Source of the DNA: a virus
DNA length: 64,000 bases
Virus record (IMG/VR): IMGVR_UViG_2921643360_000001
Span: 1-64,000 of that record
Strand: one strand, 5' to 3'
Both the position numbers and the translations under genes were made by a program. The stretch's first letter is position 1. Each line of letters begins with the position of its first letter. The notes under the pieces are model-generated. The model was given only the letters and a program-made list of their open reading frames with translations. It did no database searches and was not told the origin of the DNA. This document shows, piece after piece, positions 3,806 through 13,429 of the stretch.

Positions 3806-4639
3806 TTACTTGCTGAGTTGGATCATCGGCATTGCGCTGCCCATCATGTACTGAGGGTAGTGCCCGTCCCATTTGGCGATCTTCTGTTGCTCGATCAGCG
3901 CGGGGTTTGCCTCAAGCGATTTGCCCGTCAGCTCATTGGCCTTGGCGTTGTTCTCAGCAACCTTCAGCGCTGCCTCAGACTCAACGACGCGCTTTTGCGC
4001 TTCCCACTTCGTCTGGGCAATTTCGTTCTCGACGCGCAATGCGTTCTGCTGGGCGGTGATCTTCGCCTCAATGGCGTCGTTGAACTGCTTGCTAAACTGG
4101 AAGTCAACGATGTTCACCGCCGACACATTCACGCCGATATTCTTGAACCGAGTCAGCAACGCCTCGCGGATCTCCTGACTAACCTGGTCCCGCTTCTGAA
4201 TCAGGTCAGTAGCTTCGTATCGGGCCACGATAGCCTTCACGATGTCATGCACTGCCGGGTCCATGACTTGCGCCCACGGATCGCCGCCGAGATTGGCATA
4301 AACGCCGACTGCCGCAGTCGGAAGAATATTGAAGTTGACGGCGACCTTCATGTCGGCCTGTTGCAGGTCTTTTGAAGAACCCGCGATATCCGATTGCGCC
4401 TTGTACACGCCGATGTAGACCGTGTGCATCGACTGCGAAATCGGCATACGGAAGTGGATGCCGGGCTCGTACACCGTGGCGGATGGAGCGCCGAACGTGG
4501 TCATCACGCCGACGTAGCCCGCTGGCACGGATGCGAACGGCCAGAGGATGAAAAGCGCGATGAGCAATACAACTGCGCCGATAGCGCCGAGGATCAGCTT
4601 GATGCCGCCTCGCGGGACTTCTCTGGATGCAACAGCCAT
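3806..4639 (-). CDS. SPFH / band-7 (prohibitin-like) membrane protein
   Basis: Start moved to the internal ATG at 4639, preceded by SD AAGGAAAA. An N-terminal TM helix (LILGAIGAVVLLIALFILW) is followed by the 'VPAGYVGVMTTFG' SPFH core and a coiled-coil tail. Confidence 0.8.
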   Translation of the reverse strand: MAVASREVPRGGIKLILGAIGAVVLLIALFILWPFASVPAGYVGVMTTFGAPSATVYEPGIHFRMPISQSMHTVYIGVYKAQSDIAGSSKDLQQADMKVAVNFNILPTAAVGVYANLGGDPWAQVMDPAVHDIVKAIVARYEATDLIQKRDQVSQEIREALLTRFKNIGVNVSAVNIVDFQFSKQFNDAIEAKITAQQNALRVENEIAQTKWEAQKRVVESEAALKVAENNAKANELTGKSLEANPALIEQQKIAKWDGHYPQYMMGSAMPMIQLSK

Positions 4640-4795
4640 TTGATTTTCCTTGTGGGTAGAAAAAGAGACCCGAACCGAAGTCCGGGCCTTAAGCGCCGTC
4701 CCAGTGGACCTACTGGCACGGATGGAGAAGAAGTGCCGCTGCCCTTGGTTCATGCGAAACGCGCTAGGCCAATGCATGTGGGCTGCGGCGGTAAG

Positions 4796-10852: not shown

Positions 10853-10956
10853 TTCAGCCTCCATGCATCCATCGCCTCAACAGCGATAATCGCTAGCAGA
10901 GCGAAAGTGGTGGGGAGTAGTTCGAGGTGGGTGAAGAGGGACATGGCGGCGGCCGG

Positions 10957-11334
10957 TTAGGCGGCTTTCTTGAACGTCCGGACGACCACCATCTTTTCTT
11001 CCTCGGTGACGTCCAGGTTGTAGGCCTCATCCATCCAGTCGATAGCCTCGGGCTCGCCGTGCTTGCCACCGCCGTACCAGTATGTCCAGCCTACCCATGA
11101 GCCGTCTGGAGCCTTAGCGGCTACCGACTTGCTCTCGTAGTGCCGCGACGACTGGCAGGGAAGTTTCGTTTCAACTTCGCCTTCGCGAACCTCGTAGATC
11201 GCGTCCCACTTGTCCTCGCACTCGTCGTACAGATCGTCGATGTTGTCGGCGGTCACTTCGACTTCAATCGGCGTCTCGGCCCAGTCGGCGATTCTGGCGA
11301 GGATGATGTGTTTGATCTTTTGTTCGGGCGTCAT
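10957..11334 (-). CDS. Hypothetical acidic phage protein; first convincing gene of the PL operon
   Basis: Start at the internal ATG 11334 (MTPEQKIKHII...), with a GGAG-containing leader. Confidence 0.55.
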   Translation of the reverse strand: MTPEQKIKHIILARIADWAETPIEVEVTADNIDDLYDECEDKWDAIYEVREGEVETKLPCQSSRHYESKSVAAKAPDGSWVGWTYWYGGGKHGEPEAIDWMDEAYNLDVTEEEKMVVVRTFKKAA

Positions 11335-11939
11335 GTCTGCTCCAATAGTTGTCCTAACCGCATTGCACAAAATACTGACGGGAGGGCGCTGTTACTGTGC
11401 CGCCGACTTCGGCTAACCTACTGCACCGCCATGCGCATGTTTCAGCGATGGGCTAACGTGGCTCAGTTTCGCGGGTACTCGTCGTTGGCAGGGAGCCCAG
11501 CGGGCCCTTTCGTCAATACTCGTCTCATGGAACGGGGCCGGCGGTTTCCATCTGATCCGGCTTGGGGCGTGGCACTGATTCCCCGCTTGTACGGCATATG
11601 CCGCTCATACCACCTATCACCGGAAGTTCGCGCCATTTAGGTCGTTCGACCGCAGGACTACCAGAGCCGGTTTCGATCTTGCTGCCCGTCACCACCGGGC
11701 TACCCGTTCCATCAAACTGCTTCTTCGGACCCATCCGGCTACACCTGGCAGGCCAGCTCCGGCCTGGGTCCGTCCTACTCCTCCACCAACCGCGCAACTC
11801 ACAAGGTCACGCGACTGCCGCAGGTGCGTTCGCTTTCTACTCGAGCGAACAGCTTTGTTCCGAGCTGCGAAAAGAAACCCCGCAGAATGGTTGGCTTAAC
11901 TACGCCTTTTGCGCACCATGGGCGCGACGTACTGTGAAG

Positions 11940-11951
11940 TTGTTAAAGAGC
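11940..11951 (-). promoter_or_regulatory. rrn-type boxA-like element (GCTCTTTAACAA) about 45 nt downstream of the predicted PL start
   Basis: The minus strand reads GGCTCTTTAACAACTTC. This matches 12 of the 13 nt of E. coli rrn boxA (TGCTCTTTAACAA) and sits where lambda carries nutL. Confidence 0.5.
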
Positions 11952-12000
11952 CCTCAGACTGCGAGGTGCGCCGTTGCGCGGTGTTGCTGGTATGGATAGA

Positions 12001-12029
12001 ACGATAGCAAACGCTCTCGAAGAACGCAA
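12001..12029 (-). promoter_or_regulatory. PL early-left promoter (-35 TTGCGT, 17-nt spacer, -10 TATCGT)
   Basis: Same hexamers, spacing and embedded operator as the PR copy at 12979..13007. Confidence 0.6.
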
Positions 12030-12038
12030 GCAAAAGCT
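12006..12038. promoter_or_regulatory. OL operators (AGCAAACGCT, AGCAAAAGCT; 23-bp spacing)
   Basis: Each is one mismatch from the OR motif AGCAAATGCT. The 23-bp phasing is identical to OR sites 2 and 3. Confidence 0.55.
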
Positions 12039-12081
12039 ATCGTTGATCGATAAATTTTTTTAGCGCTAGTGTTGCGCAGAA

Positions 12082-12106
12082 ACAAAAAAGCCCGCCGAAG
12101 CGGGCT
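12082..12106 (-). terminator. Rho-independent terminator after the repressor gene
   Basis: Minus strand reads GCCCGCTTCGGCGGGC followed by TTTTTTGTTT, 22 nt after the stop. Confidence 0.8.
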
Positions 12107-12127
12107 GAACAAGCGTTTGAGTGTTTT

Positions 12128-12910
12128 TCAGGTGCTGCGATACATGCCGGATCCGCGCGGCACGATGGCGCCTACACGATGGATAGACACGATATCGGCC
12201 AGCGACCTCGTGATTGGAGGAATGCCATTGTTGATCGAACCAAGGCTGACTTCCTCATCACGGATCCACAACAATTCTTTGACGACAGCGCTGCCGTCGA
12301 CAAACTTGACCACCACATCATCACCCGGAAGAGCTTCGACGCCGGGTTCCACAACGATGTGTTCGCCACTCTTTATGCGCGGCCTCATGCTATCGCCGCG
12401 CACCTTCAAACCATAGGCCGTTGGGTCTGGTGAATGGATGTTGAGCCATCCATGGCCGTGACCTGGCGGATAGTCGTCGATACTGATAAACCCATCCGGC
12501 CCACCCTGCACTTCCCCGACCACGGCTATATCCCTCCCAGCCTTTAGTTCCAATCGCTCGCCAACGTTTGCTTCTGCTCGTGGCAGGCCTTCGATACTAG
12601 CCCCACCTTTCGGGACCGAAGGCGCAATCATGCCTGACTTTTGCCGGTTCTTCGAGATATCAGTGTCCGCTGAAATGTGGTTGCCGGTGACGCCCAAATC
12701 GAAGTAGAGAGTCGGCAAGCCAAGTTCGGACTCGAGTCGCCGCGCAGCTCCTTCGCCGAACCCGCGTCCCTCCCGATAGTTCGGGTTCAGCAGTTGTCGG
12801 ATCCGAGCCGCATCCTGGTTGTGCAGTCGAGCGAATTCAGCGGCGACCCCTCCCGCCTCCCTGTCCACTAGTTCCTGTAGCCGCTTACGGCGGTGCGCAT
12901 GTATGTCCAT
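12128..12910 (-). CDS. CI-like repressor with LexA/S24 peptidase C-terminal domain
   Basis: Start at ATG 12910 (MDIHAHRRK). The C-terminus 'GLKVRGDSMRPRIKSGEHIVVEP...VVKEL' is the S24 Ser/Lys autocleavage fold. Transcribed divergently from the cro-like gene. Confidence 0.85.
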   Translation of the reverse strand: MDIHAHRRKRLQELVDREAGGVAAEFARLHNQDAARIRQLLNPNYREGRGFGEGAARRLESELGLPTLYFDLGVTGNHISADTDISKNRQKSGMIAPSVPKGGASIEGLPRAEANVGERLELKAGRDIAVVGEVQGGPDGFISIDDYPPGHGHGWLNIHSPDPTAYGLKVRGDSMRPRIKSGEHIVVEPGVEALPGDDVVVKFVDGSAVVKELLWIRDEEVSLGSINNGIPPITRSLADIVSIHRVGAIVPRGSGMYRST

Positions 12911-12932
12911 GGCGGAATTAGAACCGAAAACT

Positions 12933-13002
12933 AGCATTTGCTGTGAAAGCAGAATTTATCATTTCAGCACGCAAATGCTTGCGTTTAGCGGAAGCATTTG
13001 CT
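12933..13002. promoter_or_regulatory. OR operators: three copies of AGCATTTGCT / its complement
   Basis: Sites at 12933..12942, 12970..12979 (complement, 9/10) and 12993..13002, in the 103-bp divergent intergenic region. Confidence 0.7.
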
Positions 13003-13007
13003 ATCGT
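12979..13007 (+). promoter_or_regulatory. PR early-right promoter (-35 TTGCGT, 17 nt, -10 TATCGT)
   Basis: The -10 ends 6 nt before the cro ATG (13014), which implies a leaderless or near-leaderless cro mRNA. Confidence 0.55.
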
Positions 13008-13013
13008 TTGTCC

Positions 13014-13343
13014 ATGGATACCTTTCGCACCTACTTCAAAGGGCTGACCAAGGCCGAACGCGACGCGCTCGCCAAACAGGTCGGTACGACGGCTGCCTAT
13101 CTCTGGCAGATCGCCTACAAACAGCGTCGCTGCAACGAGTCGATGGCTATCGAGATTGAGAAAGCATCGCAGCGCGCGGTGACGGTCGAAGACCTTCGTC
13201 CCGATGTCGACTGGGCGTACGTCCGGAACTCGGCTCAGTCGATTGCCGATAGTGAAATTGTAGACCGCGCGCAGGCGAGCGACGACGCGCAACCGCCTGT
13301 AGGTCGCGGGAGCGCAGCTAGACACAAAAAAAGCAGTCAATAA
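13014..13343 (+). CDS. Cro/YdaS-like HTH regulator
   Basis: Internal ATG of ORF 12819..13343. 'LAKQVGTTAAYLWQIAYKQRRCNESMAIEIEKAS' is a YdaS/Cro-type HTH. Divergent from the repressor. Confidence 0.75.
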   Translation: MDTFRTYFKGLTKAERDALAKQVGTTAAYLWQIAYKQRRCNESMAIEIEKASQRAVTVEDLRPDVDWAYVRNSAQSIADSEIVDRAQASDDAQPPVGRGSAARHKKSSQ

Positions 13344-13351
13344 CAGGCCGT

Positions 13352-13372
13352 CACCCCTCACGGCGAGGGGTG
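13352..13372 (+). terminator. GC-rich hairpin after cro (tR1/nutR-position structure; no U-tract)
   Basis: CACCCCTC-acggc-GAGGGGTG, an 8-bp stem 9 nt after the stop. Confidence 0.35.
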
Positions 13373-13429
13373 CATACAACGATTTCACCAAGAGCATGTG
13401 GGGTTCATAGGGCTAGTAGTAGTTGAAAA

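Follow-up and report, generated by a model that had tools for sequence, protein, structure and literature searches.

A candidate host-type boxA at the head of long untranslated PL leaders in lambdoid phages

Described systems and how the locus compares

Antitermination of the early operons is a textbook feature of lambdoid phages that, to our knowledge, is known in two forms only, N/nut and HK022 put. The element considered here is a 12-mer, GCTCTTTAACAA, on the minus strand of a 64,000-nt stretch of viral DNA (positions 1 to 64,000 of IMG/VR record IMGVR_UViG_2921643360_000001; hereafter the window), shortly after the early-left promoter (PL) of a lambdoid immunity region. An earlier note on this DNA had read it as a near-perfect ribosomal-operon (rrn) boxA through which the left operon might use the host's rRNA-type Nus machinery, directly or with an unrecognised factor, and all the sequence evidence gathered here agrees with that hedged reading. 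A lambda framing overstates the oddity of the element: the window phage is a different one, and Nus sites that consist of boxA alone have been described for rRNA, CRISPR arrays and suhB. The window boxA probably belongs to boxA-mediated Nus antitermination of long untranslated RNA, and on balance it is likely to be a functional host (rrn)-type boxA that acts through Nus factors and spares a long untranslated leader from Rho without a phage N protein.

In rrn antitermination, boxA alone is essential and sufficient, whereas boxB and boxC are dispensable (PMC6614797). The window element matches the rrn leader boxA, the site of a NusB/NusE/NusA/NusG/SuhB/S4 complex, over 12 identical nt, or 14-15 nt with Pseudomonad context, and like the rrn site it stands ahead of a long RNA that is not translated. 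Between the -10 hexamer and boxA there are about 37 nt in Pseudomonad rrn P2 leaders (counted from sequences), 49 nt in the window and 45-53 nt in related phages. Unlike the rrn site, the window element lies in a repressor-controlled phage early operon, where it would guard an mRNA leader followed by protein genes. It also lacks a boxC-like GUGUGGG after boxA and a conserved boxB-like hairpin before it, and it occurs in one copy, with no spacer copy.

The closest system in its working is the boxA of CRISPR arrays, which shields these long untranslated transcripts from Rho (Stringer et al., 2020; PMC7665894). There, as proposed here, boxA acts alone, outside rRNA, at the head of a long untranslated RNA. 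The boxA in the suhB 5' untranslated region (UTR) differs in being repressive and near the start codon (PMC5725501). Unlike either, the window boxA is carried on a mobile element, would serve phage early genes and is known from sequence alone.

The lambda nut sites, nutL and nutR, join boxA to boxB and act with N. The lambda boxA is shorter (CGCUCUUA), whereas the window boxA equals the full host consensus. The likeness is one of place, some tens of nt downstream of PL in the immunity region of a lambdoid phage, and presumably of partners, since the same Nus factors would be recruited. The differences are that none of boxB, an N-like gene or a nutR equivalent was found here, and that control would be constitutive once PL fires rather than timed by N. 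HK022 put is likewise a cis-acting RNA just after a lambdoid PL that needs no phage protein (PMC9378689). As described there, put is an RNA of about 70 nt with two stems that acts on polymerase alone and is present on both arms, whereas the window has a conserved linear 12-mer on one arm only. The PR arm of the window has no room for a put RNA, because cro is apparently leaderless.

A host-type boxA shortly after PL

The 12-mer picked out in the earlier note is real: GCTCTTTAACAA occupies 11951..11940 on the minus strand, within GAGGGCTCTTTAACAACTTCACAG. The corresponding boxA (GCUCUUUAACAA, 11940..11951, minus) fits the gamma-proteobacterial consensus GYTCTTTAANA perfectly (Baniulyte et al., 2017; PMC5725501). 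No other match turns up in the 64 kb when one mismatch is tolerated. At that tolerance 0.10 matches are expected and one or more appeared in 10 of 100 shuffles, and the window-wide uniqueness of the 12-mer, taken alone, is only suggestive.

The PL promoter/operator region (12001..12060, minus) has a -35 TTGCGT at 12029..12024, a 17-nt spacer and an extended -10 TGcTATCGT at 12009..12001 (hexamer 12006..12001), with operator inverted repeats CGATAGC/GCTATCG. A generic promoter consensus scan does not call PL. The assignment is sound because the same TTGCGT-17-TGcTATCGT core recurs at PR (12979..13007, plus) and in 11 further loci that share the immunity type and have related repressors. Transcription is predicted to start near 11993. 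The spacing given in the earlier note holds, in that boxA lies about 49 nt past the -10 hexamer and at about +43..+54 of the predicted transcript.

The match to host rrn leaders is exact. As the earlier note had it, TGCTCTTTAACAA is the E. coli rrn leader sequence, and a 51-mer of that leader that includes it is 100% identical in 5426 of 5426 complete E. coli genomes, at a median of 7 places per genome. Pseudomonadaceae served as the host-type comparison (120 rrn loci, L136-L255, 804 kb). These loci hold 101 copies of the 12-mer, all 170-190 nt upstream of the 16S 5' end, with none outside the 16S leader on either strand and none between 16S and 23S. The exact 12-mer is present in 71 of the 79 complete Pseudomonad leaders, and the exceptions seen carry GTTCTTTAACAA. 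The commonest rrn boxA context (ccGCTCTTTAACAACTg / ccGCTCTTTAACAACTgaatc) is identical to the window element over 14 consecutive nt (GCTCTTTAACAACT). Random scatter of the 12-mer in the host, named in the earlier note as a sign against its reading, is not what these 804 kb show: in this DNA around Pseudomonad rrn loci, which is not the host genome itself, the 12-mer is confined to 16S leaders. Beyond about 15 nt the flanks of the window boxA differ from rrn leaders. Three hallmarks of an rrn-type boxA are present, namely identity with the Pseudomonad and E. coli rrn sequences, a place on the sense strand shortly after a promoter (with a predicted start site), and conservation while the flanks diverge.

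Two details of host boxA contexts can be added. In Pseudomonadaceae rrn leaders a hairpin, GGUUGAGAcgaaagaUCUUAACC, stands just 5' of boxA and GUGUGGGUG follows about 16 nt 3' of it. Baniulyte et al. (2017; PMC5725501) also report a boxA ahead of ribH-nusB in Pseudomonas.

Less is left of the 7-bp stem that had been thought to enclose the element. Its arms, GCGCACC (11971..11965) and GGTGCGC (11917..11911), are present, but the stem itself is at chance level. It appears in neither the minimum free energy (MFE) fold nor the centroid fold, an equally long stem arises in 7.5% of shuffles, and just 2% of 87 related leaders (described below) exceed the 5% shuffle level, so it was rejected both for the window and as a feature of the group. 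Across the 87 leaders the AU-rich part of boxA is mostly unpaired (predicted pairing probability 0.1-0.3). The window's own MFE fold pairs boxA in part, and that fold is no better than shuffles. A small 5' hairpin in the MFE fold, GCGC-AACG-GCGC (11968..11979, minus), is weak and not a conserved element, and the window's 44 nt upstream of boxA have a folding z of +0.78.

The same layout in D3-like phages and other prophages

The order of promoter and boxA recurs in Pseudomonas phages. The D3-like phage FBPa47, reached through an unrelated 66-nt match, has a gene end, a terminator, an operator-flanked promoter, about 45 nt and then GCTCTTTAACAA. In D3 and PMG1, cI is followed by a small open reading frame (ORF), a terminator, the annotated PL promoter, 47 nt, GCTCTTTAACAAC, an unannotated leader of about 300 nt and orf68. 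The GenBank records of D3 and PMG1 carry no boxA or nut annotation, though the D3 operators, pE promoter and CII site are annotated. No description of boxA or nut in Pseudomonas phages was found in the literature searched, which did not extend to the original D3 papers.

A wider census came from scans of IMG/VR with CCGCTCTTTAACAAC (CC context) and GGCTCTTTAACAAC (GG context), the counts being lower bounds. At least 103 distinct GC-rich boxA copies were found, and 87 of these lie in DNA with stops in all six frames from -120 to +200. A sigma-70-like promoter stands within 120 nt of boxA in 60 of the 87 listed loci, mostly with 45-53 nt between the -10 and boxA, and boxA is always on the transcribed strand. 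The GGCTCTTTAACAAC scan, which returned mostly AT-rich coding chance matches, provides a background control: among the matches listed, 62 of 89 GC-rich CC-context matches are promoter-proximal, as against about 11% of the mostly AT-rich GG-context matches. The promoters of these loci are flanked by many unrelated operator repeats, which points to many immunity types. Among the matches listed, some 57-87 distinct GC-rich prophage loci show the arrangement of promoter, about 45-53 nt, boxA and long leader. BLAST finds no sequence shared between the window leader and the 87 boxA leaders, so that boxA is the only detectable element they have in common.

Two side observations concern these loci. 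In FBPa47 (L001 709-1601, ON857940) the annotated hypothetical coding sequences (CDSs) FBPa47_0058 and FBPa47_0059 overlap boxA on the strand opposite to the PL leader; both calls are probably spurious, because the homologous stretch is unannotated in D3 and PMG1. Among the low-GC CC-context (CCGCTCTTTAACAAC) matches listed, for example L356, 17 of 21 lack open frames and 8 are promoter-proximal, and the promoter-then-boxA layout may for that reason extend to phages of other hosts.

Long leaders often carry boxA, and the PR arm does not

The PL 5' UTR of the window is about 660 nt long and holds no credible ORF. About 605 nt of it follow boxA (11335..11939, minus), with no family match for the two ORFs there and no intrinsic terminator. 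The terminator scan finds no minus-strand intrinsic terminator either in this leader or anywhere before 4689, which would leave only Rho-type termination to overcome, the task of the rrn-type complex.

The presence of boxA goes with leader length. Twelve distinct PLs share the window's promoter and operator motif. Nine have leaders of about 41-56 nt that run straight to a Shine-Dalgarno (SD) sequence and ATG, and 0 of these 9 have boxA. The three with long leaders (the window, L002 and L004) all carry boxA or a near-variant (GCTCTTTAACAA, GATCTTTAACC and GCTCTGTAACC, respectively). The exact probability of this split is 1/220. A more distant relative, L006, has GGTCTTTAACAAC behind the same hairpin as L002. 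In a second sample, chosen by upstream terminator sequence and so independent of boxA, 25 of 31 long leaders have the GCTCTTT core within 120 nt of the -10, as do 4 of the 10 short leaders (Fisher p = 0.04). This sample holds 12 copies of the exact 13-mer and 5 each of the variants GCTCTTTCACAAC and GCTCTTTCGACAA. In long PL leaders boxA is frequent, not universal.

On the right, the PR and cro-like gene region (12979..13343, plus; Pfam YdaS_toxin HTH 7.8e-12; PHROG transcriptional repressor) has its -10 TATCGT at 13002..13007 and the cro ATG at 13014. With the ATG 7 nt past the -10, the cro mRNA is probably leaderless. The earlier note had found no second boxA downstream of PR and cro, and this stands: the plus strand has no GYTCTTTAANA match at one mismatch or fewer, and the GCTCTTT core is absent from the plus strand of the window between PR and 38196. 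There is no second consensus boxA in the 87 related loci (807 kb). The PR sides of 47 loci (those with at least 3.5 kb on that side) show a relaxed core at chance level only, and no second site was found on the PR arm of D3. The regulatory asymmetry between PL and PR that had been suggested agrees with the finding of a single boxA at each locus and of none on the PR side. The target of Rho is untranslated RNA (PMC7665894), and boxA would be needed only at PL because PR runs directly into leaderless cro, whereas PL runs into about 660 nt of untranslated RNA.

Proposed mechanism and its alternatives

When the repressor is lifted, RNA polymerase would start from PL at about 11993 and transcribe boxA at about +43. 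The host NusB-NusE(S10) dimer would bind the single-stranded GCUCUUUAACAA and, together with NusA, NusG and SuhB, convert polymerase to an rrn-type, termination-resistant elongation complex. Polymerase could then cross the Rho-exposed leader of about 660 nt and reach the early-left genes (unknowns, an Erf-like gene, a RecE-like gene and eventually integrase). No lambda-N-like phage protein or boxB hairpin would be needed, and PR would have no need of boxA, its transcript beginning with translated, leaderless cro. It is our inference that Nus factors bind, that the leader is sensitive to Rho and that no phage factor is needed. That the element is a selected Nus-binding boxA is very likely; for its action without N, the balance tips only slightly in favour.

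Several observations weigh against this proposal. The two closest long-leader relatives have degenerate boxAs (GATCTTTAACC and GCTCTGTAACC), many D3-like PLs carry the variants GCTCTTTCACAAC and GCTCTTTCGACAA, which are of unproven activity, and 6 of the 31 long PL leaders in the terminator-chosen sample lack the GCTCTTT core. The middle of the window leader is G-rich (C/G about 0.5) and so makes no obvious Rho loading site. The IMG/VR census is biased and non-independent, its loci having been picked by exact 14/15-mers and being linked through descent and recombination. Because N proteins are small and disordered and evolve fast, failure to find one is weak evidence.

The strongest alternative, although an unlikely one, is a true lambdoid nut site, at which boxA would work with an unrecognised, fast-evolving N-like protein and a nearby hairpin in timed antitermination of the left operon. 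The lambdoid layout of the region (cI, PL and PR with shared operators, cro, recombination genes) suits it, as does the position of boxA just after PL, the place of nutL in lambda. Lambda N compensates for a poor boxA, and the weak or variant boxAs of relatives recall lambda; the window element, however, is a full host rrn boxA and not a weakened one. A nut system would also be expected to have a conserved boxB, an N-like first gene and a second site on the PR arm. None of the three was found, the search having low sensitivity for N-like proteins, which homology detects poorly, and the second site is missing from the window, D3 and the 47 loci alike. In the 87 leaders the 44 nt 5' of boxA have more structure than shuffled sequences (mean z -1.15), and a hairpin directly 5' of boxA is mildly enriched (45% vs 33% in shuffles). 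Yet neither side has a hairpin with a conserved sequence or position: those 3' of boxA vary in sequence (mean z -0.52), and RNAalifold on a MAFFT alignment of boxA leaders gives no consensus structure.

Nor do the neighbouring genes look like N. In related loci, with gene starts called by a simple SD+ORF rule, the first gene after boxA is a median of about 270 nt away. These first genes, 83 in all, form 62 clusters with no relation to one another, and most of their products are acidic. Pfam and PHROG give no antiterminator match. For the Pseudomonas lambdoid phage YA3, no N homologue is reported (PMC7326022).

Leader ORFs were considered as N-like candidates and set aside. The two in the window (57 and 90 aa), which have no Pfam or PHROG match, overlap RNA modules whose copies elsewhere have a frame-breaking indel. 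The small basic ORF of the D3 leader (48-54 aa) is not conserved: its start codon is lost in relatives, it has no family match, and a hairpin inside it covaries (gcgcaatgcgc vs acgcaatgcgt).

Rather improbably, boxA might instead serve the leader RNA itself, with Nus factors acting as a co-transcriptional folding chaperone, as they do for rRNA, or jointly with put-like modules. The leader does contain mosaically shared modules with compensatory changes (11620..11538, and the outer stem of 11771..11727), and HK022 put RNAs occupy the same place after PL (PMC9378689). The modules vary by locus, however, with none common to most boxA leaders; none has an assigned function or an Rfam family, and the window leader, taken as a whole, has no more structure than its shuffles (z -0.5). 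HK022 put, moreover, is on both arms, and its description makes no mention of boxA (PMC9378689).

A repressive, suhB-like boxA, at which bound Nus factors would lower downstream expression and so damp the left operon according to host state, is very improbable. The study that documents such repression for suhB, and proposes it for many genes, chose boxA elements no more than 50 nt from a start codon (PMC5725501). A boxA of the suhB type would thus lie within about 50 nt of the start codon; the distance here is about 605 nt, and that in related loci has the median given above. That the element has no RNA function, being instead a fortuitous match, a piece of rrn leader picked up from the host or a protein-binding site in the DNA, is hardly credible. 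A single 12-mer in a 64-kb window would be only suggestive alone, but this one is found at a constant spacing from PL in dozens of leaders that are otherwise unrelated, always on the transcribed strand, with flanks unlike rrn leaders beyond about 15 nt, and Pseudomonad DNA near rrn operons has it only in the rrn leader.

An rrn-type boxA acting through Nus factors without N thus remains the preferred reading for the window. Its extension to many Pseudomonas lambdoid phages, D3 included, is more tentative. In these, rrn-type antitermination free of a phage factor could use Nus factors both to counter Rho and to assist the folding of leader modules, and would be tied to the host's supply of free NusB and S10.

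Significance

By lambda analogy a boxA near PL is expected; what is informative is the absence of N, boxB and nutR together with the breadth of the class. If the proposal is true, a host-identical boxA heading PL leaders would explain how polymerase passes through the long untranslated leaders of Pseudomonas lambdoid phages. BoxA-only Nus antitermination, known for rRNA and CRISPR arrays, would also gain the early operons of phages. On the more tentative wider reading, lambdoid phages would have, next to lambda N/nut and HK022 put, a third route to early antitermination that does without N, and expression of the left operon, with its recombination and excision functions, would be tied to the ribosome-synthesis state of the host. 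In practice, the layout offers a rule for annotating PL in Pseudomonas prophages (a terminator, an operator-flanked promoter and ccGCTCTTTAACAAcc at about +45), and D3 on PAO1 is a ready test system. PL leaders are, besides, a reservoir of conserved, unexplained RNA modules.

Immunity region and early-left operon

The cI-like repressor gene (12128..12937, minus) encodes 269 aa with an S24 peptidase C-terminal domain (Pfam Peptidase_S24 1.1e-13; PHROG transcriptional repressor / CI-like repressor) and is transcribed in the PL direction. Its protein has no exact match on record. The repressor transcript ends at a strong intrinsic terminator just upstream of PL (12080..12106, minus; terminator scan), which consists of AGCCCGCTTCGGCGGGCT and TTTTTGTTT, with a hairpin at 12106..12089 (7 pairs, 6 GC) followed by a T-run.

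The first credible early-left gene (10957..11334, minus; ATG 11334) has an SD-like GGAG 9 nt upstream of its ATG. Its 125-aa product is acidic and not N-like, and residues 1-123 match phrog_25120 (1.6e-38). The left operon also encodes an Erf-like annealing protein and a RecE-like exonuclease, and an integrase gene is at 481-1554. The DNA is part of contig MWML01000013.1 of GCA_004334975.1. The first strong minus-strand terminator after PL is at 4689..4666.

That terminator (10 pairs + CTTTTTC) lies inside ORF 3806..4777, near the 5' end of a lipoprotein-like gene call whose match to phrog_200 begins at residue 58. The lipoprotein-like gene probably starts downstream of the terminator, which may close the recombination-gene part of the left operon.

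Rfam returned nothing relevant (whole window at the gathering threshold; 10900-13400 at E<=10), and a tRNA scan of the window found no tRNA. Megablast of the immunity region against phage genomes gave no match, and a distant mode gave just the 66-nt module; every DNA match in the phage collection is to a Pseudomonas phage.

BoxA variants and RNA modules in PL leaders

Natural boxA variants are common in D3-like prophage PL leaders. GCTCTTTCACAAC, GCTCTTTCGACAA, GCTCTTTACACAA and GCTCTTTCACATT occur at the same position and behind the same 5' segment (L583, L589, L607, L587, L596, L605, L611, L660, L568, L622, L635 and L653), and GCUCUUUCACAA and GCUCUUUCGACAA are likewise natural variants. In D3-like PL leaders the sequence changes immediately 3' of the element, which often makes boxA the mark of a recombination junction. 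Long PL leaders (160-470 nt) without the boxA core are found in L576, L582, L602 (with the FBPa47 promoter), L666, L625 and L669. L576-type leaders and L666 have a different common 5' motif, ..caagccggag/atc.., and the boxA-less long leaders may represent an alternative leader type or another way of coping with Rho.

The window leader is not unusually stable (z -0.2 and -0.5), and only its first 78 nt or so are C-rich and G-poor, which is not decisive as a signature of Rho loading. It is built of RNA modules shared mosaically with other prophages (L006, L004, FBPa47). The best defined of these, at 11620..11538 (minus), comprises GUGAUAGGUGGUAUG, hairpin P1, ACAAG, P2 with the invariant loop AAUCAGUGCCAC, and hairpin P3, and has copies at L001 3001-3090, L469 5886, L475(-) 2579, L484(-) 130 and L517(-) 9165. 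Over 5 sequences, 99% of cells are paired and 4 pairs are changed on both sides, with covariation in P2 (GGGG/CCCC, UCGG/CCGA, GCUGG/CCAGC, GCGG/CCGC). A 7-bp pseudoknot, GUGGUAU/GUGCCAC, is possible and invariant. In FBPa47 and L469 an intrinsic terminator follows about 35 nt after a module of this type.

A second hairpin module, at 11771..11727 (minus) and at about 4140-4190 of L004, has the conserved core CCGGAGCUGGCcUGCCAGGUGUAGCCGG. Its outer stem is wholly exchanged, from GGACCCA/UGGGUCC in the window to CGUCCCCG/CGGGGACG in L004, which points to RNA structure and not to coding. Neither this module nor that at 11620..11538 has an Rfam family. A third segment, 11865..11813 (minus), is 92% identical over 53 nt to L006 5544-5596, in an otherwise different leader, and contains the hairpin GUUCGCUCGAGUAGAAAGCGAAC.

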